Positions 698 to 32,446 are shown, counted from the first letter of the stretch. The stretch: 38,383 nucleotides of DNA from a virus (IMGVR_UViG_2711768032_000008:1-38383); one strand, 5' to 3'. Notes: generated from the letters alone by a model not told the origin. Made by a program: numbers and translations.

Positions 698-1060
698 GGG
701 GCTGATTCTGGATTCGACGGGATTTGCGAAACCCAAGGTGCATGCCGAGGGGCGGTTGGCCTCGTAAAAAGCCGCAAAAAATAGTCGCAAACGACGAAAA
801 CTACGCTTTAGCAGCTTAATAACCTGCTTAGAGCCCTCTCTCCCTAGCCTCCGCTCTTAGGACGGGGATCAAGAGAGGTCAAACCCAAAAGAGATCGCGT
901 GGAAGCCCTGCCTGGGGTTGAAGCGTTAAAACTTAATCAGGCTAGTTTGTTAGTGGCGTGTCCGTCCGCAGCTGGCAAGCGAATGTAAAGACTGACTAAG
1001 CATGTAGTACCGAGGATGTAGGAATTTCGGACGCGGGTTCAACTCCCGCCAGCTCCACCA
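698..1060 (+). ncRNA. ssrA: tmRNA (SsrA), 363 nt
   Basis: Begins GGGGCTGATTCTGGATTCGACGGG and ends with tRNA-like GGTTCAACTCCCGCCAGCTCCACCA; internal tag reading frame GCA AAC GAC GAA AAC TAC GCT TTA GCA GCT TAA (ANDENYALAA) at 787-819. Confidence 0.95.
1016..1060 (+). repeat. attL core: 45-bp ssrA 3' end, one of two identical direct repeats
   Basis: ATGTAGGAATTTCGGACGCGGGTTCAACTCCCGCCAGCTCCACCA is present identically at 1016-1060 and 32402-32446. Confidence 0.85.
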
Positions 1061-1070
1061 AATAAAACAA

Positions 1071-1103
1071 GGGGTTACGTGAAAACGTAGCCCCTTTTTC
1101 TTT
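1071..1103 (+). terminator. Rho-independent terminator downstream of ssrA
   Basis: Hairpin GGGGTTACG / CGTAGCCCC (1071-1079 / 1086-1094) followed by TTTTTCTTT. Confidence 0.6.
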
Positions 1104-1157
1104 GGTAGTGGCGGCAAAATGGCGACAGCAGTTTAGGTCGTGGCGGCAAAAAGCAAT

Positions 1158-1177
1158 AAAAAACCCGCCGTAGCGGG
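1158..1177 (-). terminator. Rho-independent terminator of ogr
   Basis: On the minus strand, hairpin CCCGC-TACG-GCGGG followed by TTTTTT immediately after the ogr stop codon. Confidence 0.55.
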
Positions 1178-1393
1178 TCAGTAAGAAAGCTGTTGCTGCA
1201 TCCCTTTGGGATGCGGTGGTGCGGCGCTTATTTTCTCAGGACGGCAGACAGAACGAACAAAGGTTTCATGCGTTACGAACGTATGCCCACACTCAATATT
1301 AGTGCACTGGTTGTAACGCTCTTTGGTTTGAGTTGAGACTTGAAAACTACTGCGTGTGTGTGCGGCCTGACCACACAACGGACAATTCATCAT
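1178..1393 (-). CDS. ogr: Ogr/Delta-family zinc-finger late-gene activator
   Basis: 71 aa, MMNCPLCGQAAHTRSS...ERYNQCTNIECGHTF; Cys-x2-Cys...Cys-x4-Cys-His pattern as recalled for P2 Ogr; sits at the prophage end next to D. Confidence 0.85.
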   Translation of the reverse strand: MMNCPLCGQAAHTRSSFQVSTQTKERYNQCTNIECGHTFVTHETFVRSVCRPEKISAAPPHPKGMQQQLSY

Positions 1394-1461
1394 TTATCAA
1401 CTCTCCTCATTTGTGCTTTATCCGCAACAATGATACATCATTATTCAATATTGAGAACCAT

Positions 1462-2562
1462 TTATTCCATTTCGAGATCATCAATCTTCACTTCAAGCTC
1501 CATGCTGGTCGTAAATCCATTATCCGGGCTGACAGAATGCGTCAGGGTGGTAATGGTCCATTCTGCATCATCGATCGGCTGCTTAAACCCCGTCACCTTC
1601 ACCGGCATTTCCGTATAGAGATCAGCCCGCCCCTCAGCGAGCTGCAGGGAAAATGAAGCAACCCCGCGCTGCAGGCGTTCCCACTGCATTTTTGCTGCGC
1701 GCTCTGCATTGCTCCGATTGGCGTAGGTACGATTAAGAACCAGCACGTTTTCATCCGTTCCCACCAGATAATCGCCCTGTTTTGTTTCCGGCTCTTTGGG
1801 TGTGGTGGTTTTCTTTCGACGACGCTTAACACTGGTTGTCTCTTTTTTCCTGGGTTCACGCGTATGCAACCAGCTGGCAATAACACCGGTATAGGCACCA
1901 CGATCAGCAAGGGTGAACCGATGACCGTCACCGGCTTTGCGCGTGATGGTGATAACCGGCAGCGGCTTGCCGCTCGCCGTTCTTCCCTGTCCCTGCCGGA
2001 TAAACAGCAGATTCCCGTCCTTAACGGAAGCAATCGCCCCGTACTGTCTCGCCAGTTTCATCAGAAAACTTGCATCGCTTTCATTGGTCTGGTCCAGATG
2101 ATCCAGCGCCTTATCCGTCAGGTCTTTACCCAGCGCCATTTTGAGGTTATGCCGGGCGGCTATTTTCTTTACCACCTCCCCCACCGTTGTCTGATGCCAT
2201 GATTTTTCGCGCCGTGTATTGAGGGTTTCACGGAAATCTGCGCTACGCGCCCGGATGGTCAGCCGGTCAGGGGCACCGCTGTGTTCAATTTCATCCACAG
2301 TAAAAGCCCCTTTAGGGAAAAGCGGCTGGCCTTTCCAGCCCAGCGCCAGCTGAATCACTGCCCCACGTCGCGGCAGGGCGATCAGCCCGTCGGCGTCGTC
2401 CAGCTCCAGATCAAGCTGGTCCGCTTCAAAGCCCCGGTTATCCGTCAGCGTCAGACTCATCAGGCGGGTATCCAGCACGGTCGTCACGTCCTTACCTTCA
2501 ATGACGATACTGAAAGCAGGGCTTTTGCTGTTCAGATTCAGAAGATCAGAATTAACGTTCAC
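1462..2562 (-). CDS. D: Tail protein D (gpD-like)
   Basis: 366 aa; position between ogr and U; translation resembles P2 gpD from memory. Confidence 0.8.
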   Translation of the reverse strand: MNVNSDLLNLNSKSPAFSIVIEGKDVTTVLDTRLMSLTLTDNRGFEADQLDLELDDADGLIALPRRGAVIQLALGWKGQPLFPKGAFTVDEIEHSGAPDRLTIRARSADFRETLNTRREKSWHQTTVGEVVKKIAARHNLKMALGKDLTDKALDHLDQTNESDASFLMKLARQYGAIASVKDGNLLFIRQGQGRTASGKPLPVITITRKAGDGHRFTLADRGAYTGVIASWLHTREPRKKETTSVKRRRKKTTTPKEPETKQGDYLVGTDENVLVLNRTYANRSNAERAAKMQWERLQRGVASFSLQLAEGRADLYTEMPVKVTGFKQPIDDAEWTITTLTHSVSPDNGFTTSMELEVKIDDLEME

Positions 2563-3044
2563 TGCAGCAATCCTCCTACCGTGTTCTTAATCCCCCCAAT
2601 CGCAGAGGCAGCAGAGTCCTGCAGGTTGCTGAGCTGGTCACTCAGGCTCCCGAACATGTCAGACAGCGATTCATCAACCCGTTTGAGGGTGATCGTAAAC
2701 TCAATGCGCCTCGGCATTCCACTGGCAAAAAACTCCGTCTTTGTCTGGCTCAGACTTTCAATAACAAACATGCCGTAAATGGTTCCGCTGCCTTCAATCA
2801 AAGGCCAGGCTTTGCCCTGCTCTGCCATCAACTCCAGCGCCAGCAATGACAGCCTGCCTCCGGTCACTTCCGGCAGCAGAACCCCGGACAGTGTCAGTGA
2901 ATCGTTATCCGGGCCAAGAAACTGCGTTGACGGGCGGCGGTTCACCCGGCTGTTGGCTGCATGTCGCCAGCTGCGCTGATACTGCAGCTCCTGATAAGGG
3001 ACAGTGCGCAGCATAAATACATATAAACCCAGCACCATCATCAT
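2559..3044 (-). CDS. U: Tail protein U (gpU-like)
   Basis: 161 aa; 4-bp overlap with D and with T; P2 gene order T-U-D. Confidence 0.8.
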   Translation of the reverse strand: MMMVLGLYVFMLRTVPYQELQYQRSWRHAANSRVNRRPSTQFLGPDNDSLTLSGVLLPEVTGGRLSLLALELMAEQGKAWPLIEGSGTIYGMFVIESLSQTKTEFFASGMPRRIEFTITLKRVDESLSDMFGSLSDQLSNLQDSAASAIGGIKNTVGGLLQ

Positions 3045-5848
3045 GATTCATACCCCCCCTGATCGCTGAAATTGCTGCGCGCTTTTGCCCTGGCCCTGCG
3101 TTCCCGCTCGTCAAGCTGGCGTGCCACTTCACGGGCAATATCCTGCGCACTCTGTCCCGGCTGTGCAACGATATGAATGGGCGCATTTATCTCATAACGA
3201 ATAACTGACGGCGGGCTGTCTGCCTTAACAGGCTGCGTCTGGTATGCCCTCGCAGGCAGACTGAACGGATGAAACGGAGCTGCTTCTGCAGGTGTCGCAG
3301 CTACCCCCATCACGCCTGCAACGACAGAAGCCAGAGCGGCTGTTCGCCGTCTGCTGGTAACATTTGCGGGGCCATTCACAATTTCGGGGCCATTTTCTCC
3401 AACAATGCCAAACTGCCCGCGAGGAATGATCCCGCCCGTGTCGTACATCCCTGCGTAAGCCGGGAACCCACCGGGCGGCAGCACCACTTTGCCGTCACTG
3501 TTCACCGTGGCGGATTGCTGCTGCGTAACCTGCGCAGGCAGTTTCGCCTTCGCAGCCTCCTTACTGACAATACCGAGCTTTTCCAGCAGCCACGACACAC
3601 CGGATTTAAGTGATTCCAGCGGGTGCATCACCCTATTCAGACCTTCCGCCAGCGCCTCACCAAACCGGCGCCCCATTGCAGCTGCGCTGTTCAGTTCTTC
3701 AGAAGTGGATTTAACCGGCGTAAGCAAATCATTGAACCAGCCCCACAAGGCCTGCACCCTGTCACCCATCCACTGAAACATGGGCCTGAGCGGCTCAAAG
3801 GCGGCACTGATGGGCGCAGCAGCGGCTTTGAACCCTTCCACCACGCCCCCCAGAAATGCACTGATGGGCTGCCAGTATTTCCACACAACCAACGCCGCAC
3901 CAGCCAGCGCAGCCACAACCAGCCCTATCGGACTGAGCAGCGCACCCAGTAGTCCACTGATGGCAAACAGAGCAACGCGCAACAGCGCCAGCGGACCAGA
4001 AACCAGCAACCGCAACACACCCCCGGTACGTGTTACCGCCGCCGCTGCGGAAGGTAATGCCTTAGCTGCCAGCATCGACAACCCGAAACGGATCACTGCA
4101 ATTGGCCCCAGCACCGCAGCCACCGCCACGGCAAGCGTCCCCAGCCCGACAGCTATCACCGCCATGACCGCCGCCACTTTCATCAGCGTGCCCGCCAGCA
4201 CGGGGTTCTGCTCAACCCATCGACGCAGCGCCCCGGTCACGCCCTTAACCATGCCCATAATATCCATCAGCGGCTGGCGCAGCGTTTCCCCCAGGCTGCT
4301 GAAAGCGTTCTGCGCACCCGTCTTAACCAGCAACCACTGCGCAGACAATGAATCCTTGTTAATGTCGGATTCTTTCTGCATGGAGCCATTAGCACCACCG
4401 CCTGATGTGAGTTTCAGCTGACGCTGCAGCTCCGGCAGGTTGTTAGCCAGCTTTGCCGCATCATCGCCAAACTCTTTGCCAAAAAGCATCGTCATTGCAG
4501 ACAGGCGCTTGTCCTGCGGCAGATTGTTGACCTTCTCCAGAACCCGCCGAATGGTGCCCATGGCATCGGTGGTCATCTGCTTTTCAATCTCCGCCGGATT
4601 GAGTTTCAGCAGGCTCATACCTTCAAAGAAGCGCTTACTTTGCATGGTGGCAATGGACAGTTCACGCACCATGGCATTAGAGGCGCTGGCGGCAATTTCC
4701 GGGGCAGCCCCCAAAGAAAGGAATGTTGAACCCAGCGCAGCAGCCTTTCGGAAGTCAAGACGGTCAGCCACGCCCCCCATGCGCTGCAGGACGTTGATAA
4801 TGTCCCCGCCCTTTGACATGGCGTTATCGTCTAGGTAGTTCAGCGCATCGCCCAGCTGTTCAATATTGCGCGTCGGAACTTTATAGAGCTGCGCGATTTT
4901 CCCCAACCCTTCCGCCAGCTCATCGGCTGGCAGCTCAAAGGCCGTTGCAGCTTTTGCCGCCGTGGATGCAAAGGCCAGCAGGTCACGTTTCTGGTCCTCA
5001 AAGGGATCGTCCTGGCTGGTCACGCCCATGCGCGCGCCCCCCTCAACCAGCGCGGCATAGTCTATAGCGCCATTCTCCATGGGCAGCTGCTCACTGGCAG
5101 CCTTGATGGCATCCTGCATATCATAAAACTGTTTTGTACGGTTGCCGTTATCGTCACGCAGCCCGTTTACCTGCTTTGCCACGCCTTTCATGGCATCTTC
5201 CATACTGGCGTAGCTCTTAACTGCAGCCATAACCGGCGCGCCCATTGCCAGCCCCGCTGCCGTGGTGGTGGCCCCGGCTCCGGCAATGCGATCCCGAACC
5301 TCCAGACGGCGCGAATACTGATCACGAACCGCATTCATTCTCGCCTGCTGTTCACCCAGGCGTTTCAGGGATTTTTGCTGTCGCTCCAGTGCCAGTCGGG
5401 TTTCATCGGCGTTCTGCCGTAACTCACGCTGTGCGCTGCTCAGTTTCTTTGTATCAAGCCCTGCCTCATTCAGCGCAAGGCGCTGACGCTGCACTGACTG
5501 ACGCAGCCCGTTATATTTTCCCTGTAAATCGGTGACGCGATTTTTAGCCTGCTCAAGCAGCCTGGCCTGTGCAGCCGTCGGGCGGTTGGTCACAGTAAAC
5601 TGCGTGGCGAGTTTTGCCGCTTCTTCGCGGGCGGCTTTAAGGCTGTTACCTGTGACTGCCAGCTGCGCGCTGGCCTTACGGAAGCCATCAATTCTGCCCG
5701 CCTGAGAATCTAACTCTTTCAGTCGGGCGCGGCTTTGCTGAATGGCGGCAGCCAGCTCTTTTGAGCTGGCCTGCGCGGATCGAAATGGGCGGGTGAGCTT
5801 GTCAACCGCATTCAGAATCACCTGCAGACGCAGGTTAGTGTCACTCAT
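3041..5848 (-). CDS. T: Tail tape measure protein (gpT-like)
   Basis: 935 aa with coiled-coil N-terminal part and Ala/Gly-rich hydrophobic middle segment; start overlaps the E' stop (ATGAGTGA). Confidence 0.9.
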   Translation of the reverse strand: MSDTNLRLQVILNAVDKLTRPFRSAQASSKELAAAIQQSRARLKELDSQAGRIDGFRKASAQLAVTGNSLKAAREEAAKLATQFTVTNRPTAAQARLLEQAKNRVTDLQGKYNGLRQSVQRQRLALNEAGLDTKKLSSAQRELRQNADETRLALERQQKSLKRLGEQQARMNAVRDQYSRRLEVRDRIAGAGATTTAAGLAMGAPVMAAVKSYASMEDAMKGVAKQVNGLRDDNGNRTKQFYDMQDAIKAASEQLPMENGAIDYAALVEGGARMGVTSQDDPFEDQKRDLLAFASTAAKAATAFELPADELAEGLGKIAQLYKVPTRNIEQLGDALNYLDDNAMSKGGDIINVLQRMGGVADRLDFRKAAALGSTFLSLGAAPEIAASASNAMVRELSIATMQSKRFFEGMSLLKLNPAEIEKQMTTDAMGTIRRVLEKVNNLPQDKRLSAMTMLFGKEFGDDAAKLANNLPELQRQLKLTSGGGANGSMQKESDINKDSLSAQWLLVKTGAQNAFSSLGETLRQPLMDIMGMVKGVTGALRRWVEQNPVLAGTLMKVAAVMAVIAVGLGTLAVAVAAVLGPIAVIRFGLSMLAAKALPSAAAAVTRTGGVLRLLVSGPLALLRVALFAISGLLGALLSPIGLVVAALAGAALVVWKYWQPISAFLGGVVEGFKAAAAPISAAFEPLRPMFQWMGDRVQALWGWFNDLLTPVKSTSEELNSAAAMGRRFGEALAEGLNRVMHPLESLKSGVSWLLEKLGIVSKEAAKAKLPAQVTQQQSATVNSDGKVVLPPGGFPAYAGMYDTGGIIPRGQFGIVGENGPEIVNGPANVTSRRRTAALASVVAGVMGVAATPAEAAPFHPFSLPARAYQTQPVKADSPPSVIRYEINAPIHIVAQPGQSAQDIAREVARQLDERERRARAKARSNFSDQGGYES

Positions 5849-6277: not shown

Positions 6278-6331
6278 GTTCGTTTCCTGTTAATCAGATA
6301 CTGGCGCGGATCACCGCGCCGTTAAGTTAAA

Positions 6332-6847: not shown

Positions 6848-6856
6848 GGTGTCCCC

Positions 6857-8488: not shown

Positions 8489-9556
8489 GTGAAGCTAACA
8501 AAAGAACAAAGTGATATTTTATATATCGTTAAAGGAATTGGGATTTTCACTGTTGTAATTGGTCATAGCTGGGGTATTCTTGTAAGTTTAACAAAACCTT
8601 ATTTTTACCATATGCCATTATTCTTTTTTATCGGTGGTTTTTTCCTGAGTGGTGAAGAACCAATTAAAGCCGCAACAAGAACCATCAAAAAAATCACCAC
8701 TTACTTAATAATAACATACATTATAATAGGGGTAGCATCAGAAATAATATCTTCCTTTTATGAAGTGGATTTTGGAACACCTTTTTCAACAGATACCATT
8801 AGAACCGTAGTTGCAACTTTAGAACATAATTTTCATAACAACGAATTATTTTTTGTCGGATGGTTTCTTTTTGCATATGCGCTGGCAAATATCACATCAG
8901 AAATAATACTATCATTACTATTGAAAATTAAAAACAATAGTTTAAAAAAAGCAGCACCTATTATCACTGCAATCATACTAGGTGTTGTATCCGTAAATTT
9001 CACAGCACATATTTATAAAAACTCCGAGTTGCAAATTTACAATCTAATCTCACAAGTGCTTTATGCCTCAATGTTTATGTTAATTGGATATTCCATCCGC
9101 AATATAGCGTTAAACTTTAAAAATAACATGTTATCTATCGTGTTATTCGCTTTAGTGGTGCTATTATATTTAACCGGCGTTGCAAAACAAATGATAATGT
9201 CATGGAGCACTTATCCGTCTGGTTTTATTATTTCAAGCATTGTAGCACTATCTTGTATTTTATTAATATTCTTTGCAGCTCAACATATAAACAAAACTGT
9301 TCTATCCGCCTTTTTTATTGATGCCGGAAAATACTCTAGAAACATAATGTCATACCACCTCTGCATATTTGTAATGTTAGACATATGTTTTTCAACCATA
9401 GGCTTATGGGATATGAAGAATACAAAAACGCTTTCTCACTATCAAAGTTCATATTCTCAACTCTTGTATCCTTTCATCGCAGCGGTAGTCCCATTATACA
9501 TAGCAAAAATATTATCGAGAGGGAAAAGCAAAATAATATCAATCACCTCTCAATAA
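8489..9556 (+). CDS. Acyltransferase family 3 integral membrane protein (OafA/Oac-like)
   Basis: 355 aa, about 10 hydrophobic segments, N-terminal ...GIGIFTVVIGHSWG motif typical of acyltransferase_3; AT-rich; GTG start; lies between tail fibre assembly and sheath genes (P2 Z/fun position). Confidence 0.7.
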   Translation: MKLTKEQSDILYIVKGIGIFTVVIGHSWGILVSLTKPYFYHMPLFFFIGGFFLSGEEPIKAATRTIKKITTYLIITYIIIGVASEIISSFYEVDFGTPFSTDTIRTVVATLEHNFHNNELFFVGWFLFAYALANITSEIILSLLLKIKNNSLKKAAPIITAIILGVVSVNFTAHIYKNSELQIYNLISQVLYASMFMLIGYSIRNIALNFKNNMLSIVLFALVVLLYLTGVAKQMIMSWSTYPSGFIISSIVALSCILLIFFAAQHINKTVLSAFFIDAGKYSRNIMSYHLCIFVMLDICFSTIGLWDMKNTKTLSHYQSSYSQLLYPFIAAVVPLYIAKILSRGKSKIISITSQ

Positions 9557-10012: not shown

Positions 10013-10014
10013 AA

Positions 10015-13817: not shown

Positions 13818-14624
13818 ATGAGTGTTATGAATCCAATAAGTTCTAATATATTTAATGCTGAATTTTTAAATACCCCGGCAGCGGCACTTGCCGCATGGAT
13901 TTCCATTATTGGAGCTGCTATAACTCTGGTGACGATAGTTATAAGAGCACTATTCAAATATAGAAAGTCTCATGATGTAATTTTGAAAAAATCAGGAATA
14001 CCTGCGTTTATATTAAATTTTTTTCTTATACGAATATCATTAAAAAGGCTGCCTACTATCACATGGGCTGAAAAATCAATCGCGGTTCTCTTTTCACTTC
14101 TTTTTTTGTATGCAATTTATATTTTTGGTCCAGTTTTCATCCAAACCATTAGAACCCCACCAAATAGCACATTGCTTTATTGGATAAAGTCCGGTGAATC
14201 ATTTTACATATCAAAAAAACTGGCGACTGCAGCTACAATATTAACCACTCCTGATTGGGAAATATCAAAGGATGATTGCGAACAGTCATCCTCTGCCAGT
14301 TCAGAGAAGTACAAATCATTAACTATCGAACATAAAGAAATTCTTTGTAAACTACTAACCACTGATGAAGGGAATGCTTACATTGATAAAGCAGTCAAGA
14401 AGTTCGTTAAAGACAAATTCTTTATCTATTCCTTTACCCCAATGACCATATTTATTCTATTATGGCTTTCTTTGGGTTTTATGCTGACCATTCACTATTC
14501 TAAAAAAGTCAGGAAATATATTCTAACTGAACAAAAAAGTGCAATTCATTGGGCAAATGGTGAATTCAAGACAGAAGGAATCTATTCAATATATCAAGAG
14601 TTAGAACGTAAGACTCACCATTAA
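13818..14624 (+). CDS. Hypothetical membrane protein (prophage cargo between S and V)
   Basis: 268 aa, AT-rich, opposite strand to the late operon; hydrophobic segments (AAALAAWISIIGAAITLVTIVI, IAVLFSLLFLYAIYIFGPVFI, IYSFTPMTIFILLWLSLGFML); SD-like AGGTGG upstream; no family recognised. Confidence 0.6.
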   Translation: MSVMNPISSNIFNAEFLNTPAAALAAWISIIGAAITLVTIVIRALFKYRKSHDVILKKSGIPAFILNFFLIRISLKRLPTITWAEKSIAVLFSLLFLYAIYIFGPVFIQTIRTPPNSTLLYWIKSGESFYISKKLATAATILTTPDWEISKDDCEQSSSASSEKYKSLTIEHKEILCKLLTTDEGNAYIDKAVKKFVKDKFFIYSFTPMTIFILLWLSLGFMLTIHYSKKVRKYILTEQKSAIHWANGEFKTEGIYSIYQELERKTHH

Positions 14625-21907: not shown

Positions 21908-22920
21908 TGGGTAAGAGTAAGAAAAACCGCACTGCAGTTAAGCACCGCAGCGGCGCATCCGCAGAAGCATTCAGCTTTGGTGATCCGATCCCGGTTCTGG
22001 ACCGCCGTGAGCTGCTTGATTACGTGGAGTGCGTGCAGATGGACCGCTGGTATGAACCGCCAGTAAGTTTTGACGGGCTGGCGCGCACCTACCGTGCGGC
22101 CGTGCATCACAGCTCACCCATTGCCGTTAAACGCAACATTCTGACCAGCACCTTTATTCCGCACCCTCTGCTGAGTCAGCAGGCATTCAGCCGGTTTGTG
22201 CAGGACTATCTGGTATTCGGTAACGCCTATCTGGAGAAGCGCACCAACCGCCTCGGCGGTATTCTGTCGCTGGAGCCATCGCTGGCGAAATATACCCGCC
22301 GTGGTCTGGATCTCGATACCTACTGGTTTGTGCAATACGGTATGACCACACAGCCCTACGAGTTCACCAAAGGCAGTATCTTTCACCTGATGGAGCCGGA
22401 TTTAAACCAGGAGATTTACGGCCTGCCGGAATACTTGTCCGCCATCCCTTCCGCCCTGCTGAATGAGTCTGCCACGCTGTTCCGCCGCAAGTATTACATC
22501 AACGGCAGCCATGCGGGATTCATCATGTATATGACTGACGCCGCACAGAACCAGGAGGACGTGAACAACATCCGGCAGGCAATGAAAAGCGCCAAAGGGC
22601 CGGGCAACTTCCGCAATCTGTTTATGTACTCGCCGAACGGCAAAAAGGACGGGATTCAGATTATCCCGCTGTCAGAAGTCGCGGCAAAGGATGAGTTTCT
22701 GAACATCAAAAACGTGAGTCGGGACGATATGATGGCAGCACATCGCGTTCCGCCACAGATGATGGGGATTATGCCAAGTAACGTTGGTGGGTTTGGGGAT
22801 GTGGAGAAAGCCAGCAAGGTTTTCGTTAGAAATGAACTTATCCCGCTCCAAAAAAGAATATCGGAAGTTAATGAATGGTTAGGTGAAAATGCTATAACTT
22901 TTGTGGAATATCTATTATAG
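21904..22920 (+). CDS. Q: Portal protein Q
   Basis: 338 aa with recalled similarity to P2 gpQ (e.g. PVLDRRELLDYVEC, HHSSPI, YGLPEYLSA, NELIPLQ). Confidence 0.9.
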   Translation: MMGKSKKNRTAVKHRSGASAEAFSFGDPIPVLDRRELLDYVECVQMDRWYEPPVSFDGLARTYRAAVHHSSPIAVKRNILTSTFIPHPLLSQQAFSRFVQDYLVFGNAYLEKRTNRLGGILSLEPSLAKYTRRGLDLDTYWFVQYGMTTQPYEFTKGSIFHLMEPDLNQEIYGLPEYLSAIPSALLNESATLFRRKYYINGSHAGFIMYMTDAAQNQEDVNNIRQAMKSAKGPGNFRNLFMYSPNGKKDGIQIIPLSEVAAKDEFLNIKNVSRDDMMAAHRVPPQMMGIMPSNVGGFGDVEKASKVFVRNELIPLQKRISEVNEWLGENAITFVEYLL

Positions 22921-23252: not shown

Positions 23253-24656
23253 TTAAGGATCCCTGTTGATTTGTTTTTTTACGTGAAAAGCATTATTAAA
23301 TTTATCGACAAGCTCGCCATCTTCTAATGCGCTGAACAATGACCTGTTTTGCACATTGAATAATTCAATCTCATCGCCCCGCCCCTCAATATAGACATCT
23401 ATAATATGCGATGCCTTACTACCTTCTCCAAAGTCTCGAAAAAAACAAACTAGGTTATCTAAGTTGTTAGGTGTTATAGTTTTAAAGTTATCTAAAAAAC
23501 TTTGATATAATGAATTTATAACTTCAGACTGATTGTTATCAAATGAGTCGCGATATAACCCCCAAGCAATAGTGAAGTTATCTCTAGACTTTCCATCTAG
23601 AACTAACTCATTCATCTTTTTGATTTCATCATCTAGCATTAACTTATTATAATACCCATCCTTAACAGCACTAATAAGGATCCTATCCAAGTCAGATGTG
23701 TTGTGATATTTGTATTTATTGATAATTTCCTTCCAAGCTAGTTTCTTTGAGTCATTGTCTTTTTCATTGTTAAATGAACCATAGAACATAAATTCATCTT
23801 TTTCTATAAACTGTATCGGAGGTACTAATTCATCATCATTAAAACAATAATAGCTCCATGAAAAAAGTACAATAGAATGCATAATGGAGTACAAAATACC
23901 ATCATCCATATTCTTAGTATGAAGATACGCCTCATCGATTAAACGTTCTATTTTTTTTAGCACACGGATATTAGTTATTCCGACACTTGAGGTTAAAGAT
24001 CTCAAATCATCATGAAATCTTTTTTTTCCGTCATACGCGATTTGCGCACACTCATAAGGTGTTGGTTTAAACGTAAATTCAATATCAATTACTTTTTCTT
24101 TATAAGTTTCATAGTCCTTAGTTTCACTAGTCCCATCATTTAATAGCAATACCACTTTGCATTTTTTTTGTTCTTTAAGATGTGAAACCAATCCTAATAC
24201 ATCCTTCAACGGCAATCCATCGCCTTTCCTCTCTAAATCATCTATGCATACTATAATATTTTTTAGAGACATAAATGACAATGCTTCTAAGGCTGGTGCA
24301 AAATCTTTCACATAAGGCATGTTTTTCACAAAGTTCATTGCCTTTCTACCAAAACCCTCTGACAGAGCCAATGCATTTTGTTTAAAAGTTTCAATATTTG
24401 GCTCGATACCAATTGAAGATGTTGGAATCGCATTTTCAAATATAGAATACTTTAAGGCATCAAGAGAGTTCACTCCGAATAATGACACGTATGAATATCG
24501 TTCAAATTCTATATTAACTTCCTGCTTCGCTGTTTGTAAAAAATTATTCCAGCCATAGGTCTTTCCTACACCCCACTTACCTTTTATCGCTACTACCGCT
24601 GATTCTTCATTATTAAGAAAATTAAATATTTGCTCGCGAACTATAGCTATTGACAT
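23253..24656 (-). CDS. KAP-family P-loop NTPase (candidate anti-phage cargo)
   Basis: 467 aa; Walker A GKWGVGKT with the Trp typical of KAP NTPases, Walker B-like IVCIDDLERK; strongly AT-rich compared with flanking phage genes; between cos and Q. Confidence 0.75.
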   Translation of the reverse strand: MSIAIVREQIFNFLNNEESAVVAIKGKWGVGKTYGWNNFLQTAKQEVNIEFERYSYVSLFGVNSLDALKYSIFENAIPTSSIGIEPNIETFKQNALALSEGFGRKAMNFVKNMPYVKDFAPALEALSFMSLKNIIVCIDDLERKGDGLPLKDVLGLVSHLKEQKKCKVVLLLNDGTSETKDYETYKEKVIDIEFTFKPTPYECAQIAYDGKKRFHDDLRSLTSSVGITNIRVLKKIERLIDEAYLHTKNMDDGILYSIMHSIVLFSWSYYCFNDDELVPPIQFIEKDEFMFYGSFNNEKDNDSKKLAWKEIINKYKYHNTSDLDRILISAVKDGYYNKLMLDDEIKKMNELVLDGKSRDNFTIAWGLYRDSFDNNQSEVINSLYQSFLDNFKTITPNNLDNLVCFFRDFGEGSKASHIIDVYIEGRGDEIELFNVQNRSLFSALEDGELVDKFNNAFHVKKQINRDP

Positions 24657-24938: not shown

Positions 24939-25124
24939 CTAATGCGTACTCTCATCCTGCCCTACTCCATATTCATCCAGCCGGGTAACCAGATCGCTCG
25001 TCAGTTCTGACAACCACGAAATCGCCACCTCTTTATCGTCATCGCTACAGTCTGAACTGGCAACCAGCCGGGCCATAAGTTCTATCCGCTGCAGTGCAAG
25101 TGACTCCATGAACAAATCGTTCAC
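24939..25124 (-). CDS. Hypothetical small acidic protein
   Basis: 61-aa ORF between A and cos; no family recognised. Confidence 0.35.
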   Translation of the reverse strand: MNDLFMESLALQRIELMARLVASSDCSDDDKEVAISWLSELTSDLVTRLDEYGVGQDESTH

Positions 25125-25239
25125 AACTCCCTCCCAATATTACTGTTTATATATACAGTACATCATATGCATTTAAAGCTGAAATAATTTTTTACTCAGC
25201 TAACCCTTTGATTAATAGATAGCCTCATTTCAGACCGTC

Positions 25240-27660
25240 TTAGTACCACTGCCGCCATTTGTCATCCTCCTGCAGACGCTGATCCCGGTAGAAAAGGCGT
25301 AGCCCGGCTCCGGATGGGATGCTACCGCCTCGTAAAAGCAGATCCACTTCCGCATCACTTGCATCAAATCCTCTGGAACTCAGTTCTGCCTCGAGCTGCA
25401 GTCGTTGCTGTTCTGAAATGCTCTGTTTGTATGCTTTTTTCCGCTTCGGTTTTACCAGTCTCAACCTAGCGGTGAGTTCCCACCGTTCCTTCTGGCTCAT
25501 GTTGTGCAAGTAATCCTGCAACTCCTTCTCATCCATGGATTTAATATCGGGTAAATCCCCTTCTGCCTGGTTCAAATTTTCAACAGGGGGACAGTTATTG
25601 CCACGAGTCCAAGGGGCGCAAGCGCCCTGGTCGGCTGTCGCCTCCTGAACGTCAACGGCCTTGCGAACCATTTTCCACTTCACCGCGTGCGTGCAAATCT
25701 TGCCCTCTGCAATCGGGGACCAGATGCCATAAATACGGATACCGTGATCGCCGTAGGCGCTCGGCTCGTCGTTAAGCTCGTAGGCCGTTCTGACAAGGTG
25801 ATGTTTGCGGGGAACCAGCACGCCACCCTGTTTCATAATGTAGGTGGCAAAGCAGCCCGCATCAGCAGCAGCCAGTACCGCATCCAGACGCGGGTTATCC
25901 AGTACCGGCGCGCCCGCTTTGCGCTCGCCCTGCACTCTGGCGGCCTGACCAGCCAGCAAACGCAGCTCGCGGTATGCCTGGCGCCCCGGAATACCAAAGA
26001 AGCGAAACTGTTGGACGCGATGCAGTGACGCCCATGCACTAACATGCTCGGCGCTGTCGCGCAGCGATCTGCCGGTTTCTTTGCTGATTTCTTTAGCCAG
26101 TCCGCGCCCGTCAATATTCTTGCTGATGTATTTGGCGATATAGCTGGTCGGCGTGCCCTTACGCGGGTTGATAAGCTCGGATTTGAAGCGCGGCCCCGTG
26201 TTGTTGCCCAGCTCCTCGCGGTCTTCACGAATGGCAAATTTACGCAGCAGCGCGGTAATGGATCGACGGTCTTTTTTGCGCATGAAGCACAGCAGGTGCC
26301 AGTGCACGGTACCGTCATGGTGCGGTTCTGCAACGCGGACGCCATACCAGCGCAGCCCGGCTTTGTGCATTGCCTTGCGGAAAGCGGCGAACGTATCAAC
26401 CAGGTAATCACTGCTCTGGCGGACTGTGGCGCTGGTCCACTTCGGATTTGGTCTGCCGTTGTTAAGGGTTGCGTGGAAGCGTGACGGGCAGGTGATGGTA
26501 TAGAACACAGCGCAGTCTCCGCGCATTTCCGCGATCAGCTCCAGCCCTTTCACACAGGCCATCATTTCATTACGACGGTGCGCCGGGTTGCTGCTGCTGG
26601 CGTTCACCACGTCTTCCATATCCAGCGTGTCGCCGTCTGCATTAACCAGCTCGTGCGACTGGAAAAACTCCAGCGATTTGCGGCGCTGCTCGCGTTTGTG
26701 GATCACGGTTTCATAGCTGACATACGGCGATGCTTTCTTGTTAACCAGGCATACTGCACGCAGTTGTTCCTCCCGCCATTCACAGCGCATCTGCCACAGC
26801 TTGCGATACCACCAGTCTGCGCACAGCATACGTGCAAGCGAAGGTGGGATAAGCTCATAAGGCACGGGTTTACGGCGGCGTTTCTTGCGGCGCAGTTTCT
26901 CAAATGCAGGTGGTATAACTTCAAGTCGCATAGTTTCTGCAGCGACTTTTTCCCATGTCTGCCTGATTTCTTCCAGTTCTACATCATCACTTGCAGACAG
27001 ATCGCCCCAACCCGCATCAAGACACATGCTCATGTGTGCCGCAACCAGCGTGGAAAGACGTTTGACCTGATCCTGATTCATTTCGGGCAGAACCAGCAGC
27101 CCCTCCAGTCCATCATGGCTCGCCATGAACCGGAATGAAGCAGACACCTGACTATCACGCACGCACTCCAGCCGTTCAATACACGGTCTGATAGTTTCGC
27201 GCAGGTAGCGGGAATACGCTTTCGGGCGTCCCAGGCTATGGAAGTATTTAATCCGCTCCAGCAAAGGCTTGCTGATATGGGTGGGCATGGCGCTTACATC
27301 AGCCAGGATAACCAAATCGGGGTTAACGCGTTGCTGCTCGCGGGCCATTTTGGCATGGCTAATCAGCCGATCCTGTTCCATTTCACGCTGGACAGGATCT
27401 CTGGATTCATTGAAGAAATAACGTTCCCAGACCTCATCACTCAACGCCTCACGGCGCAGTTGCTCCTGCTCGTTATCAGTAGCGTAAAGAGTGATCAGGT
27501 TTGAAAGCGCAGACTCCGGCGCAACTTCCGCCGGGTCCAGATACGGATTAACCGCTTTTTTTGGGGTATTCCATGGAAAGGCCACGGCGGCCTCGATCGG
27601 GCCGCTTTTGTCTCTTGCTAATTTTAGCGTCACTGGGAGACTCCAAGGCTCACAAAGCAC
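25240..27660 (-). CDS. A: Replication initiation endonuclease A (gpA-like, rolling-circle Rep)
   Basis: 806 aa; HxH-type motif ([10 protein letters not shown]) and downstream YIAKYISK segment; early-region position. Confidence 0.9.
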
Positions 27661-27877
27661 CTCGGGTGTAGTGCTTACCTTTCAGCTCTGCAATTTCCTG
27701 ACAGGTAACGCAGCACTGCACACCCGGGATGGCTCGGCGGCGAGCTGGCGGGATTGGTGCATCGCAATCAACGCAGAGAACACGGGAAACGCCCGGCACT
27801 TTGGCGCGGGCGTTGTGGATGTGGCGCTGGAGATCTTCTTCCACGCGCTGCTGCACGAGGTCCATTGAATCAGCCAT
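27650..27877 (-). CDS. TraR/DksA-family C4 zinc-finger protein
   Basis: 75 aa with [26 protein letters not shown] four-cysteine motif. Confidence 0.75.
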
Positions 27878-28113
27878 CAGTGCCAGTCCCCCCGAGATTC
27901 CGCTTCACAGCGCGCAGCTTCGCGGCGCAGTAGCTCTGCTGCCTCCACCCCGTTCATTTCCTTCTGCAGAATATGAATCGCCAACGCTTCCATTCGGATT
28001 GAAACGGCTAAAGCACGATCCTTGCGCTCATCCATACGCGCCTCAGTAAGCAACAGATTGAGGCCTGCATCATCTGGTCCTGTTTTGGTGACACGGGTTT
28101 CAATATTTCGCAT
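27877..28113 (-). CDS. Hypothetical early-region protein
   Basis: 78-aa ORF packed between neighbouring minus-strand early genes. Confidence 0.45.
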   Translation of the reverse strand: MRNIETRVTKTGPDDAGLNLLLTEARMDERKDRALAVSIRMEALAIHILQKEMNGVEAAELLRREAARCEAESRGDWH

Positions 28114-28180
28114 AGTTGTTTCTCCTGAATTTGGGCAATAAGAAGCCCGGCGGGTTTACGCCATTAATTTCTGTTGTGGA

Positions 28181-28522
28181 TTAATTCGGCATGGTTAGCC
28201 GTTTGGGAAATAAGCTCACCACTGCACGAAAATGATTCATTGCTTTAATCAGCTCCCGCGTTTCGTCAGTGGTCAGCTCATTAATTTTGACGCTGTGACG
28301 TTCTGCCGGAATTTTTGCCATATAAAATATGGCTGCCAGTGCCCTCTCATTCTGTTTATTGTTAACGTCCCTTGGGTCACGCATATCCTCAATAAATCTT
28401 TCAAGCTCCGACTCAATATTCAGGCCAAACACTTTTGCTCGTAATTCCGCAATATGGTTCAGTCCGTCCAGGCGTTTACCGGGGCTTAATGGAACAGTCG
28501 CCGCAGCGCCTTCGATAGCCAT
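28181..28522 (-). CDS. Hypothetical early-region protein
   Basis: 113-aa ORF in the 186-like early operon downstream of cII. Confidence 0.5.
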   Translation of the reverse strand: MAIEGAAATVPLSPGKRLDGLNHIAELRAKVFGLNIESELERFIEDMRDPRDVNNKQNERALAAIFYMAKIPAERHSVKINELTTDETRELIKAMNHFRAVVSLFPKRLTMPN

Positions 28523-28692
28523 GTGTTCCCCTTTTTGGTTGTAGACAGTTCAGCCAGCAGCGCATCCTGAGAGCGGCACGGATGCCAGCGCTTGCCATCC
28601 TTCCCCATAATCCAACCATGACCGCAGTGCATTGCAGGACTTGGCTTAACGAGAAGCGATGCAAAAGAAGGTTCTTTAGTCAGCATAACCAC
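28486..28692 (-). CDS. Hypothetical small early protein
   Basis: 68-aa ORF with Cys/His residues, immediately downstream of cII-like gene. Confidence 0.4.
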   Translation of the reverse strand: MVMLTKEPSFASLLVKPSPAMHCGHGWIMGKDGKRWHPCRSQDALLAELSTTKKGNTWLSKALRRLFH

Positions 28693-28693
28693 C

Positions 28694-29203
28694 TCAGATC
28701 AGCCCGAACGAAGCGCCGAGGCCCGTCACGGTATCCACCGCGCTTGCCATCGCCGGATTAACCTGCAAACGCGCATGCAATGAAACTGCAGTGAGTGCCA
28801 TCAAGCGCGTAACAGAGTTGATGCTGTTGATAACATCGCGGCGGCCTGCACTGGTTTTTACATCACCGGATACTGCGCCTGCAGCTACTCGCCCAATCTC
28901 CGCAGTTGCGCTCATGACGTAATGCGGCAGGTTCTCTTTTGCCACTTCATTCAATGGCACACACGGCAGGCAATGGATTTGAGCCAGAAAACCGTCAACC
29001 AGCGTTGAGTCCTCTGTGATATCAGTCAGCAGCCAGATCTCCGGCGGAGTGAGTTGATGTGGTTGGTCTGGGTTCAGTTTGTTGCGCAGAGTCTGGACGT
29101 TCATTCCTGCACGTTCCGCCAGCTTCGCCATGTTGTGACGCAGCGCGAAAGTCCGACAGGAGTCATCAAAGTGCGGATGTTTGGAAATCTTATAATCAAA
29201 CAT
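28694..29203 (-). CDS. 186 CII-like regulatory protein
   Basis: 169 aa; position after apl/cox and recalled similarity to the phage 186 CII family. Confidence 0.65.
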   Translation of the reverse strand: MFDYKISKHPHFDDSCRTFALRHNMAKLAERAGMNVQTLRNKLNPDQPHQLTPPEIWLLTDITEDSTLVDGFLAQIHCLPCVPLNEVAKENLPHYVMSATAEIGRVAAGAVSGDVKTSAGRRDVINSINSVTRLMALTAVSLHARLQVNPAMASAVDTVTGLGASFGLI

Positions 29204-29235
29204 GTAAGCCCCTTAGAAAGTTCTCATAATTGAAC

Positions 29236-29478
29236 TTACTGGCCAACAATGACGCGGAAGTTGGAATGACCGAGGGATTCACGAACCTGGTCGGTTTTGT
29301 ACATCAGATAACGAAGGCTTACGCGACCTTTGTTTTTTTCCTTCTTGACCATGTATTTAGCAAGCTGACCATGGTGGATCTTTTGGTAAACAGAACCACG
29401 GGAAATACCTTCCCACTCCGCGAACTCTGCGGGCGTAGCCATCTCTTTTGGTACACGAATTGAAATATCAGTACTCAT
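29236..29478 (-). CDS. Apl/Cox-like excisionase/repressor (HTH)
   Basis: 80 aa, divergent from cI; HTH-like segment ISRGSVYQKIHHGQL. Confidence 0.6.
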   Translation of the reverse strand: MSTDISIRVPKEMATPAEFAEWEGISRGSVYQKIHHGQLAKYMVKKEKNKGRVSLRYLMYKTDQVRESLGHSNFRVIVGQ

Positions 29479-29597
29479 AGTGCAGTATCTCTCGATTAAG
29501 GTTTGGTTTACGTCGTTTTATCTTATTTTATTTGATTCAATAATTGATACATCGAGATACTACGATCCAATATTTGATACGTCAACAGGATTGAAAA
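29479..29597. promoter_or_regulatory. Lysis-lysogeny switch region with repeated TTGATAC motifs
   Basis: AT-rich divergent intergenic region between apl/cox and cI; TTGATAC at 29544-29550 and 29574-29580, TTGATTC at 29532-29538. Confidence 0.5.
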
Positions 29598-30230
29598 ATG
29601 ATACACGTGAAAGCGGGCGAGAATACCGGGGGAAGAGAGGCTATCCATAGGCTAATGGCTGCCTACGATTTCAAGTCCAGACAGCAACTGTGCGATCACC
29701 TGGGCGCATCAAAAAGCACTATGGCAAACAGATACTTAAGAGATAGTTTTCCGGCGGAATGGGTGATTCAGTGCGCTCTGGAGACAGGTGTTTCTTTACT
29801 CTGGCTAACAACCGGTCAGGGCGAGCCAAGTTCAAATATTGATTCGAAAAAAAATATCAATTTCGTGAACTCTGGCAAAGTCAAACCCCTTTCTGAGCTT
29901 GTTTCCCCCGAAATTGATAAGGCAACTCTCAACGGTGGCTTATTGGTCGATGCTGGAAAAGCAATCATTGATAGCAGCCTGCTCCCCTCAGACTCAAGCA
30001 ACCTATTGCTGGTGAATACTTCTGGAGATTCTTATTTAGTGGACCGCAGCCAAACACCTCCAGTTAACGGTATGTGGTTGGTAGATATCGACGGAATAAA
30101 AAGCATCGTGAAGTTAACACGGCTACCAGGAAACAGATTGGTGGTCCATCAAGACGAATCATCCTTTGAGTGCAGCCTTGATGATATCGAGGTAGTAGGC
30201 CGCGCTTTAAAAATAATTAAGAGCCTTTGA
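29598..30230 (+). CDS. cI: CI-type immunity repressor (186-like)
   Basis: 210 aa with N-terminal HTH; immediately upstream of int in the same orientation. Confidence 0.75.
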   Translation: MIHVKAGENTGGREAIHRLMAAYDFKSRQQLCDHLGASKSTMANRYLRDSFPAEWVIQCALETGVSLLWLTTGQGEPSSNIDSKKNINFVNSGKVKPLSELVSPEIDKATLNGGLLVDAGKAIIDSSLLPSDSSNLLLVNTSGDSYLVDRSQTPPVNGMWLVDIDGIKSIVKLTRLPGNRLVVHQDESSFECSLDDIEVVGRALKIIKSL

Positions 30231-30231
30231 T

Positions 30232-31251
30232 ATGACCATCAGAAAGCAGCCAAACGGAAAATGGTTGTGTGAATGCTACCCGAACGGGCGCGACGGCAAG
30301 CGTGTGCGCAAACAATTTTCGACAAAAGGCGAGGCCATAGCATTCGAAAACTTCACCATGGATGAAGTGAACAAAAAACCATGGCTAGGGGAAAAGGAAG
30401 ATCGGCGGAATCTGTCAGAAGTGATAGAGCAATGGCACTCACTCTACGGACAAACGCTTGCAGACCCCAAACGCCTGATGGCGAAACTCAACATTATTTG
30501 TAATGGTCTTGGCGATCCCATCGCCTCAGAGTTAACCGCCGGTGATTTTACGAAATACCGCGAAGCGCGGTTAAAAGGTGAAGTGCGAAATGAAGAGGGC
30601 GCACTTATGTCGCCGGTTAAGCCCCGCACGGTAAACCTTGAACAACGCAACCTATCATCGGTTTTTGGCACACTGAAAAAGCTGGGCCACTGGTCAGCGC
30701 CCAATCCGCTCGCCGGATTGCCAACATTTAAAATCGCTGAGGGCGAACTGGCATTCCTGGCCCCGGAAGAAATTAAACGCCTGCTGGATGCCTGCGCTGA
30801 TTCTCAAAGCCCCAGCCTGCTGATGATTGCAAAAATATGCCTGGCCACCGGCGCACGCTGGAGTGAAGCCGAAAACCTGCAGGGCCATCAGTTATCGAAA
30901 TACCGGATCACCTACACAAAGACCAAAGGCAAGAAAAACCGAACCGTGCCAATATCTCAGAAACTGCACGATGAACTCCCCAAAAACAGAGGGAAGCTAT
31001 TCACCCCATGCAGAAAAGCCTTTGAGCGTGCAGTGAAGCGAGCTGGTATCGACCTGCCAGAAGGTCAATGTACTCATGTGCTTCGGCATACATTCGCCAG
31101 TCACTTTATGATGAACGGCGGAAACATACTGGTACTGCGCGATATTCTTGGTCACTCTGATATTAAAATGACAATGGTCTATGCACACTTCGCTCCAGAC
31201 CATTTAGAAGATGCAGTGACGAAAAACCCACTTGCTATGTTGGAAGTTTAA
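30232..31251 (+). CDS. int: Tyrosine integrase (P2/186-type)
   Basis: 339 aa; C-terminal catalytic region with HVLRHTFASH and LGHSDIKMTMVYAH (Tyr). Confidence 0.9.
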   Translation: MTIRKQPNGKWLCECYPNGRDGKRVRKQFSTKGEAIAFENFTMDEVNKKPWLGEKEDRRNLSEVIEQWHSLYGQTLADPKRLMAKLNIICNGLGDPIASELTAGDFTKYREARLKGEVRNEEGALMSPVKPRTVNLEQRNLSSVFGTLKKLGHWSAPNPLAGLPTFKIAEGELAFLAPEEIKRLLDACADSQSPSLLMIAKICLATGARWSEAENLQGHQLSKYRITYTKTKGKKNRTVPISQKLHDELPKNRGKLFTPCRKAFERAVKRAGIDLPEGQCTHVLRHTFASHFMMNGGNILVLRDILGHSDIKMTMVYAHFAPDHLEDAVTKNPLAMLEV

Positions 31252-31252
31252 T

Positions 31253-31783
31253 ATGGACAAAAGCTTAGTAGCTCTTTTTTACTTTTCGTTTTTATTTTTA
31301 AGTTTTTTTGTTTTTATTAAGTATCGACTTTACGAACTCGATCATAGAAGCTTATTCCAGCAACCTCTTTTTTGGGCTGCAATTGCACTCCCCTTACTCA
31401 CTTGTTTTTTCTTAGGCTCATTAGTTTGGATAGATAAAATCCACTCCTTCAGTCTTACAAGTCATGGTTACGAAAGATTTCTTGAAATATCTAAATTGCC
31501 ATTACTGGTTCTAGCTTCATCTGTTCCCCTAGTTTCAATAGTTAATAACCTTCACAGAACGAAACAAACAGAAAAACAAATTTCAGAGGCCGAACAAAAA
31601 AACAGAGTAGATCTATATTATAACCATATGAAATTCAACTTAGATTTGTATAAAAAAATTGAAACAAAAAAAAATTATCAGCTACTACCCTGTAGTGGAT
31701 GCCCACAAAGAAGCTATATATCAGCATTATATCAAACATCCACAAGAGCTTTACAGGAAAGCATACCCTCAATCTACCCCTGA
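31253..31783 (+). CDS. Membrane-anchored hypothetical protein, N-terminal part (frameshifted cargo gene)
   Basis: AT-rich; two or three N-terminal transmembrane helices; frame ends 110 bp after an A9 tract (31666-31674). Confidence 0.5.
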   Translation: MDKSLVALFYFSFLFLSFFVFIKYRLYELDHRSLFQQPLFWAAIALPLLTCFFLGSLVWIDKIHSFSLTSHGYERFLEISKLPLLVLASSVPLVSIVNNLHRTKQTEKQISEAEQKNRVDLYYNHMKFNLDLYKKIETKKNYQLLPCSGCPQRSYISALYQTSTRALQESIPSIYP

Positions 31784-32285
31784 TAATTCACAACAATTGA
31801 AAATCAATGATAACTTTGTTATAGAACTACATAAGTGCTGGATTGAAATTAATGCCAGACTTAAACAATTATCAGAAAGCGAAACTCAACTAGATCCAAC
31901 TCAAGAATTTTGTACTTCAAAGATGAGAATTTTCTTTGGAATAATGAGTATTTATGTAAAGACTTGCAAGCATCTTTGCTTGGGTGGATTTCATGACCAA
32001 AAGTCATTCATTTTGAATGATAATTATGATAAGTATCAAATTTATTCACCGTTCTATGACTTTGGTACAATGTACCAATCTCTGCAATCTCTAGAAGAGA
32101 TCACATTCGCTTTCTTAGATACCTGCAGAAATGAAGAGGTTAATTTATATTTCCCATTGGACGACAAAATTCTGATTTATGGTGAAGGGATTCTACAAAA
32201 TTGGTATGGATACTCTCGATTCTTGATTTCTACCGCCTATCAGCCCGCAAAGATGGTGCGTTTACAACCGCTGATGCGTGAATGA
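31659..32285 (+). CDS. Hypothetical protein, C-terminal part of the same frameshifted cargo gene
   Basis: 208-aa ORF in the +1 frame beginning inside the A9 tract (TTG start in the ORF track); removing one A fuses it to the upstream ORF. Confidence 0.45.
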   Translation: MKQKKIISYYPVVDAHKEAIYQHYIKHPQELYRKAYPQSTPDNSQQLKINDNFVIELHKCWIEINARLKQLSESETQLDPTQEFCTSKMRIFFGIMSIYVKTCKHLCLGGFHDQKSFILNDNYDKYQIYSPFYDFGTMYQSLQSLEEITFAFLDTCRNEEVNLYFPLDDKILIYGEGILQNWYGYSRFLISTAYQPAKMVRLQPLMRE

Positions 32286-32401
32286 AGATGGCGGCATTTT
32301 GGCGGCAGAGCATTAAAAACGAGTAAAACGGACAAATATGGAATAACACTAACATACTGTTTTTAAACACAACTAACTGTTTTCATTATAGTAAAAATGG
32401 T

Positions 32402-32446
32402 ATGTAGGAATTTCGGACGCGGGTTCAACTCCCGCCAGCTCCACCA
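32402..32446 (+). repeat. attR core: displaced copy of the ssrA 3' end (45 bp)
   Basis: Identical to 1016-1060; no tmRNA 5' portion upstream. Confidence 0.85.

Follow-up and report, generated by a model that had tools for sequence, protein, structure and literature searches.

The gene for transfer-messenger RNA (tmRNA), ssrA, is the most enriched of integration targets, and tandem arrays of integrated elements are a recognised class (PMC4383910, Islander). Among its occupants in Salmonella enterica are the phages Fels-2 and SopEPhi (PMC3448106; PMC10107115 Table 1), and the entry for Salmonella strain LT2 in the latter table places both Fels-2 and an element with a P4 integrase at ssrA. In Escherichia coli K-12 the element next to ssrA is CP4-57, with the integrase IntA and with AlpA, whose excision deletes T357 of ssrA and so inactivates tmRNA (PMC10107115). 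Here the subject is a viral stretch of 38,383 nt, IMGVR_UViG_2711768032_000008:1-38383 (referred to as the window), with a prophage whose host is E. coli and, directly beyond it, an island headed by an integrase of its own. The reading put forward is that two independent integrative elements are stacked at the 3′ end of one E. coli tmRNA gene, the island having come first and the phage later, and to it a probability of roughly 0.9 can be given.

The window's prophage is like Fels-2 and SopEPhi in having an integrase (Int) 93-95% identical to theirs, a 186-type CI/Apl/CII switch and the 3′ end of ssrA as its target; unlike them it resides in E. coli, lacks sopE and carries as cargo a KAP NTPase, an acyltransferase, a DUF6216 protein and an open reading frame (ORF) of 343 amino acids (aa). 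With LT2, as that strain is tabulated, the window shares the same two integrase classes at one gene in one genome, a likeness of co-occurrence, physical order aside, and the island cargo differs. The island in turn has the integrase family of CP4-57, its position and orientation 3′ of ssrA, and a similar supplied terminator. CP4-57, however, is 22 kb long, encodes AlpA, ends in an attR of the form GCCAGC-CCACCA (at 22651 of the K-12 record, L003) and can be excised, whereas the island of the window is 5.5 kb long and has neither attR nor AlpA. The prophage differs from CP4-57 as well, since its attachment (att) cores are perfect and its excision should leave ssrA intact, whereas CP4-57 excision inactivates tmRNA. 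As in Islander's tandem arrays, serial integrations at one tDNA have left an intact gene and displaced 3′ sequence; Islander's strict definition asks of every member an integrase and a tDNA fragment of its own, and here there are two integrases and one displaced fragment.

Because tandem arrays and the LT2 case are described in PMC4383910 and in Table 1 of PMC10107115, mobile elements stacked at the tmRNA gene are already known and ordinary. The exact configuration seen here is present in public genomes, and knowledge of ssrA integration is unchanged by the window. What it offers is a clean, well-bounded case of serial integration at the tmRNA gene, useful for annotation in that the exact prophage ends can be given and in that the immobile island remnant should be kept separate from the prophage, together with a view of one chromosomal slot being refilled by differing phages and satellites within one E. 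coli lineage.

One ssrA gene and two copies of its 3′ end

The features on which the argument first depends are these.

1 to 483, plus strand: smpB (SsrA-binding protein), chromosomal backbone; a 160-aa ORF with DNA 100% identical to the annotated smpB of strain 2014C-3097
698 to 1060, plus strand: intact ssrA (tmRNA) gene, called by ARAGORN and Rfam RF00023
1016 to 1060, plus strand: first 45-bp copy of an exact direct repeat, assigned as the prophage attL core and completing functional ssrA
32402 to 32446, plus strand: second, exact 45-bp copy, assigned as both prophage attR and ssrA-proximal island junction, with a flank as in island-only genomes

The tmRNA gene is the single complete one in the window; it encodes the tag ANDENYALAA and scores 295.8 bits over the full-length RF00023 model, for which the gathering score is 47. 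Positions 1-1060 are 100% identical to the smpB-ssrA region of an island-only genome. The 45-nt 3′ end of the gene, ATGTAGGAATTTCGGACGCGGGTTCAACTCCCGCCAGCTCCACCA, has exactly two occurrences, 31,386 bp apart from start to start, and the terminal 25 nt of ssrA, with up to 3 mismatches allowed, match within the window at those two copies only (0 of 100 shuffled sequences gave a match). Identity between the copies ends precisely at both 45-bp limits, beyond which the sequences on either side are unrelated. Upstream of the second copy, which stands as a fragment by itself, there is no tmRNA sequence, and the sequence downstream of this copy is that which directly follows intact ssrA in island-only genomes. 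A first-pass annotation of this DNA had stated that the 45-bp end is present twice, that the first copy completes a functional tmRNA gene and that an integrase of P4/CP4-57 type lies 165 bp past the second copy in the orientation known from ssrA-linked islands. All of this holds: the copies are exact, ARAGORN and Rfam agree on a full-length gene, and the integrase start at 32612 leaves exactly 165 bases.

The attachment site of the prophage

1061 to 32401: Fels-2-like (P2/186-type, Felsduovirus) prophage, 31,341 bp between cores, apparently complete judging from DNA identity and its gene set in PHROGs
1069 to 1106, plus strand: phage-supplied intrinsic terminator, now terminating ssrA (terminator scan; 12-bp stem and T tract)
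1109 to 1151, plus strand: P′ arm with two TGGCGGCAAAA repeats, putative arm-type Int binding sites on the strength of the repeat family
30232 to 31251, plus strand: prophage tyrosine integrase of ssrA-specific Fels-2 type (Pfam Int_N and Phage_integrase)
31253 to 32285, plus strand: AT-rich moron between int and attP, frameshifted (GC 33.6%; a run of nine A residues at 31665-31673)
32289 to 32310, plus strand: P arm with TGGCGGCATTTTGGCGGCAG repeats, putative arm-type Int sites, conserved in the attP of phage SEN8

An attP was built in silico from the right prophage end, one core and the left prophage end, and was compared with phage genomes. It aligns in one piece across the junction of the circular record of SEN8, a free phage, in which the 45-bp core is identical, the adjoining hairpin terminator is identical, and repeats of the TGGCGGCA type have been conserved on each arm; it aligns as two joined pieces in Yersinia phage MLG42 and Escherichia phage Cartapus. 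The order in SEN8 is int, attP and ogr/D, with nothing else between. Because the reconstructed attP is collinear with that of free SEN8, the two 45-bp repeats are, at the level of sequence, the true attL and attR of the phage, and the second integrase lies outside it. The terminator at 1069-1106 is identical in the attP of SEN8, and so the terminator now behind ssrA is phage DNA. The prophage integrase is 95.3% identical to that of Fels-2 and 92.9% identical to that of SopEPhi.

The motif TGGCGGCAWWW is present six times in the window, against an expectation of 0.37, and three of the six flank att cores. On the P arm one of the two repeat copies fits this motif exactly, and on the P′ arm the SEN8 attP shows conservation at the first repeat and around it, with the second falling in a poorly aligned, gapped stretch.

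The island remnant

32447 to 37957: integrase-headed island remnant, 5,511 bp, 36.7% GC; 99.97% identical to strain 2014C-3097 and 99.6% to strain 07-4299, with the IS3 end at 37958
32496 to 32520, plus strand: island-supplied terminator, which terminates ssrA in island-only genomes (terminator scan); homologous to CP4-57 sequence downstream of K-12 ssrA
32612 to 33841 (ORF from 32570), plus strand: island integrase of IntA/CP4-57 (P4) type, 409 aa (Pfam, NCBIfam)
33880 to 34296, plus strand: 138-aa ORF, a hypothetical protein in RefSeq, with no match in Pfam, PADLOC or NCBIfam
34368 to 36134, minus strand: Response_reg_2 protein (PF19191, 1.2e-4; 22.9 bits, just under the 24.1-bit cutoff), the C-terminal ~400 aa being without a family
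36118 to 37836, minus strand: HEF_HK/HATPase_c histidine-kinase-like protein (Pfam PF19192, 3.7e-31; PF02518, 1.7e-11)
37958 to 38383, minus strand: IS3 end, running off the window and truncating the island; the terminal sequence TGATCCTACCCACG starts at 37958

The island integrase has the domains Arm-DNA-bind_3, Phage_int_M and Phage_integrase (Pfam) and scores 440.6 bits with NF007246, the curated NCBIfam model for the IntA type, for which the cutoff is 434 bits. RefSeq puts the start at 32612, and the alignment with IntA opens at the same point. Identity amounts to 48% with K-12 IntA and to 50% with the integrase that a P4-like satellite encodes; between the island integrase and that of the prophage BLASTP detects no similarity (E = 14).

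Where the window ends within IS3, strains 07-4299 (L001) and 2014C-3097 (L002) show what follows: both have an annotated IS3 transposase at the island end and then a 5′-truncated ygaQ pseudogene (ygaQ′), glaH, lhgO and gabDTP. The counterpart interval in K-12 holds ypjA, pinH′, ypjC, ileY and a full ygaQ pseudogene, and the ileY/ypjA interval is absent from the lineage of the window. The IS3 copy in 07-4299 (25659-26916) is flanked by the triplets GCG and AGA, that is, without a 3-bp target duplication, which points to a deletion; its ends were read straight from the sequence, the inverted-repeat finder having returned no IS3 terminal repeats there. In strain MB7671 an IS3 is also found beside ygaQ′, with a longer ygaQ fragment and other island content.

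The first-pass annotation had looked to a third ssrA 3′ repeat to mark the far end of the island. With the terminal 25 nt or 18 nt of ssrA as queries (three mismatches at most), 12 nt of the deleted form (one at most) and any shared 11-mer, no third repeat, either perfect or in the deleted form GCCAGC-CCACCA, was found in the window downstream, or in the rest of the island and the ~14-20 kb of conserved chromosome past IS3 in strains 07-4299 and 2014C-3097. The distal tDNA fragment of the island is absent because it was deleted by IS3, on this reading, and the missing repeat, which the first-pass annotation had named among the outcomes that would refute its history, is explained by the truncation and does not refute tandem occupancy. 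The three non-integrase ORFs of the island gave no match to an AlpA-type or other excisionase in Pfam, PADLOC or NCBIfam. As judged from its sequence the island is thus an IS3-truncated proximal remnant, an integrase and three cargo genes with the distal end lost, and because it has no distal att site and no recognisable excisionase it cannot excise site-specifically. The term island needs qualifying in that what is left is a 5.5-kb remnant cut by IS3 and without its far end.

Genomes without the prophage and the order of arrival

Comparison with related genomes lacking the prophage had been proposed at first pass, and strain 2014C-3097, which has the island without the prophage, provides it. 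An empty junction was predicted in silico by fusing ssrA through 1060 to 32447 onward, and this predicted ssrA-island junction is matched at 100% over 1201 nt in that strain, where ssrA is followed directly by the same int, the 138-aa ORF, the receiver protein, the kinase, IS3 and ygaQ′. In a set of 5,426 complete E. coli genomes, ssrA is directly beside this or a similar integrase gene in 970, at least 80% of the window's island segment (32300-38383) is present in 556, an ssrA/Fels-2-like left junction in 47 and the right junction of the window in 7.

The occupants of the slot between ssrA and the island were surveyed in 24 contigs encoding a kinase protein identical to that of the window. 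All 24 have the same IS3/ygaQ′ truncation, and the slot is empty in 15, filled by a Fels-2-like phage in 5 and by a P4-like satellite in 4. The slot phage of strain 07-4299 is Fels-2-like, yet it is 78-86% identical to that of the window, with the neighbouring island 99.6% identical. In strain 504838 (L014, 3984-15915) a complete P4-like satellite stands between ssrA and the same island integrase; its genes are int, an AAA ATPase and DUF4435 pair (between int and psu), psu, delta, alpA and a primase gene. Where the satellite meets the island, the att junction is short and degenerate, AACTCCGCCAGCCACCA (L008, 15380-15440). One contig, L011, is 99.992% identical to window positions 26117-38161, so that public data already contain the configuration of the window.

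Because sister strains have a differing phage or a complete satellite between ssrA and this same island, the island would have come first. The earlier proposal of an island that integrated first and a phage that inserted later between it and ssrA is in this way borne out by a constant truncated island and varying slot occupants. Read most simply, the sequences point to an old truncated island, fixed in the lineage, and to later arrivals of different elements in the rebuilt ssrA, each of which came to lie nearest the gene.

A proposed history

The events envisaged are of a kind known for tyrosine integrases that target tDNA, from which we infer that each attP carries the ssrA 3′ end and that the gene is rebuilt on integration. 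The tyrosine integrase of an element would recombine the copy of the ssrA 3′ end on that element with the 3′ end of chromosomal ssrA, ssrA being rebuilt from element DNA and its original 3′ end being displaced to the far side of the element. In a presumed first step an island with an IntA/CP4-57-type integrase would have entered ssrA. In a second, which the structure of the locus shows, an IS3-associated deletion took the distal island, the far att site and the chromosome as far as the middle of ygaQ, with a fixed 5.5-kb remnant as the outcome, consisting of int, the 138-aa ORF and the pair of histidine-kinase-like and receiver-domain proteins. In a third, which comparison with sister strains shows, a 31.4-kb Fels-2-like temperate phage entered the rebuilt ssrA by means of its own Int and the 45-bp core. 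The phage now provides the ssrA 3′ end and the terminator, and the second 45-bp copy serves as attR and as the proximal junction of the island. Because both att cores are perfect and Int, Apl/Cox and the full gene set have been kept, the prophage should excise precisely, with ssrA unchanged and the island-only arrangement of sister strains restored.

Other histories for the locus

It merits consideration that the phage may have lysogenised first and the island may later have entered the phage attR, a displaced 45-bp copy with the short core that P4-type integrases use. That copy has the full last 45 nt of ssrA, of which P4-type integrases need about the last 15-20 nt (compare the degenerate junction in L008 and the K-12 attR GCCAGC-CCACCA), and in K-12 a remnant of a Fels-2-type P′ arm is distal to CP4-57, so that the opposite physical order does exist, the phage there being older. 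This order of events is very unlikely for the window, however, as the immobile island has the same IS3/ygaQ′ truncation in all contexts read, including empty and satellite-filled slots, as islands standing alone are common (15 of 24 contigs, and the island in 556 genomes against 7-47 with phage junctions) and as two different phages (78-86% identical) stand ahead of near-identical islands; it would require that the same IS3 deletion recurred independently or that the phage was lost repeatedly. Another notion, that of a single composite element in which the second integrase and its neighbours are prophage cargo, fits the location of that integrase only 165 bases past the phage end and its orientation, which is that of the phage int. 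It is scarcely credible, however, given the att core that separates the two integrase genes, the contiguous int-attP-ogr without a P4-type integrase in the free phages SEN8 and MLG42, and the occurrence of the island without the phage (L002) and of the phage family without this island (L017, L019, L020, L023). The second integrase is then, as the first-pass annotation had supposed, no part of the prophage, which has its own Int, Apl/Cox, CI and CII and a SEN8-collinear attP, the island standing alone at ssrA in 2014C-3097.

That the two elements might also be a helper-satellite pair, with the island being the remnant of a P4-like satellite and a functional neighbour of its P2-family helper (through co-induction, for example, or defence against the helper), is suggested by its P4-type integrase, by cargo placed directly after int like the AAA and DUF4435 cargo of the satellite in L014, by the complete P4-like satellites that fill the same ssrA slot in sister strains and by the documented P2 and P4 hotspots of defence genes (PMC9122126). 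Yet no psu, delta, sid, alpA or primase gene (alpha) was found in 32447-37957 with Pfam, NCBIfam and the RefSeq annotation, the closest relatives of the integrase head islands that are not P4-like (MobQ, RepL and pilus genes in EC42405; a serine recombinase, ParB and a type I restriction-modification system in MB7671), and in most carriers no helper phage lies beside the remnant, which makes such a pairing slightly less probable still than a phage-first order. A single two-integrase element, the reverse order of integration and a functional helper-satellite pairing are all rejected on the evidence given for and against them. There remain points that weigh against the preferred history of an island followed by a phage. 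In principle the island-only genomes could be cured lysogens, each single comparison being symmetric, and the polarity is a matter of parsimony across many genomes. The point of crossover within the 45 bp cannot be placed because all copies are identical, and excision and integration are predicted here from sequence. Though the window works like a tandem array, the strict Islander algorithm would call only the prophage. To these may be added the frameshift in the moron next to attP, which says nothing on the viability of the phage.

Gene content of the prophage

1178 to 22920: late region (PHROGs, E-values 1e-25 to 1e-217)
8489 to 9556, plus strand: acyltransferase of the Acyl_transf_3 family, low-GC cargo (Pfam PF01757, 8e-13; GC 0.35 over 8-10 kb)
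13818 to 14624, plus strand: DUF6216 protein, low-GC insertion (Pfam and GC)
23253 to 24656, minus strand: KAP P-loop NTPase, candidate defence gene, low GC (0.33), downstream of the portal gene (Pfam KAP_NTPase, 2e-9; PADLOC PDC-S49, 9.6e-27)
25240 to 27660, minus strand: replication endonuclease of gpA type (phrog_91, 3e-281)
28694 to 29203, minus strand: CII (PHROGs; families 101, 6912/575 and 4 across the switch)
29236 to 29478, minus strand: Apl/Cox excisionase (PHROGs)
29598 to 30230, plus strand: CI repressor (PHROGs)

The late region is ~89% DNA-identical, over 77% of its extent, to those of the Salmonella phages SEN8, SopEPhi, RE2010 and Fels-2, with which it is collinear, and the early region matches the same four phages too. 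The designation P2/186-like made at first pass can be sharpened to Fels-2-like, genus Felsduovirus. GC content is 51.7% for the prophage against 36.7% for the island segment. PHROGs assigns all of the P2-type late set, in its conserved order (ogr, D, U, T, E, FII, FI, H/G, I, J, W, V, S, R, lysis, L, M, N, O, P, Q): ogr (1178-1393), D, U, the tape measure, E, tail tube, sheath, and tail fibre with its assembly protein; baseplate genes I/J/W/V, S, R, lysis genes including an endolysin, and L; and, for packaging and the head, the terminase small subunit, capsid, scaffold, terminase large subunit (20141-21907) and portal (21904-22920). The 186-type switch of CI, Apl/Cox and CII (28694-30230) adjoins the tyrosine integrase gene, and its ORF sizes and order are as annotated in SEN8 and in strain 07-4299.

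Four low-GC insertions break the conserved backbone of the prophage, namely the acyltransferase gene, the DUF6216 gene, the KAP NTPase gene and the AT-rich ORF beside the att site. The acyltransferase (8489-9556) and the DUF6216 protein (13818-14624), both inside the tail and baseplate region, have no PHROGs family match. The KAP NTPase gene also matches phrog_4740, a family without an assigned function, and PDC-S49 is a candidate family of PADLOC; the related prophage of strain 07-4299 has other genes at this position, for a TIGR04255-family protein, an XRE regulator and a hypothetical protein. For the moron ORF (31253-32285) Pfam gave no family and PADLOC nothing significant, and SEN8 lacks the gene. 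In contig L011 it is intact, with eight A residues and a product of 343 aa that has hydrophobic N-terminal segments. The extra A in the window could be a sequencing error or slipped-strand variation.

The kinase and receiver genes of the island

No PADLOC family, no named system in NCBIfam and no sequence relative in PDB was found for the kinase/receiver pair (34368-37836), and it goes unmentioned in the literature on conflict systems and hotspots that was checked. The pair comes directly behind a P4-type integrase, a placement like that of the cargo between int and psu in the P4-like satellite of L014. Tentatively, the pair may be an uncharacterised two-component anti-phage or conflict system, retained by selection at a hot spot where phages and satellites land, though the odds are rather against it. 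The cargo genes alone, above all this pair and the KAP NTPase, might repay more work.

Related layouts elsewhere

Among species-representative genomes there are ten loci encoding an Int at least 68% identical to that of the window, and in nine of them the ssrA 3′ core is just downstream of int, the tenth being cut by the end of its contig. Three of the nine, in Klebsiella, Photorhabdus and an Enterobacteriaceae metagenome-assembled genome, have a gene for a P4-type integrase ~190 bp past the core, and the same int-core-int layout is seen in a Shewanella locus with an Int 60% identical. In strain EC42405 (L005, 20766-39500) an integrase gene ~88% DNA-identical to that of the island heads a ~19-kb ssrA island with genes for a MobQ relaxase, RepL and a type IV pilus, and because the content of that island differs, the subfamily of the island integrase carries very different cargo from strain to strain.

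K-12 itself has two copies of the deleted form GCCAGC-CCACCA (L003), one at 22651-22662 and a second at 28147 (within 28147-28220), beyond ypjA and pinH′. The second copy is followed by a 60-bp remnant of a Fels-2-type terminator and P′ arm, and ~85 bp upstream is an IS3-end-like sequence, TATTGCTGGGTAAGATCA. This suggests that an older Fels-2-like prophage has left a remnant distal to CP4-57.

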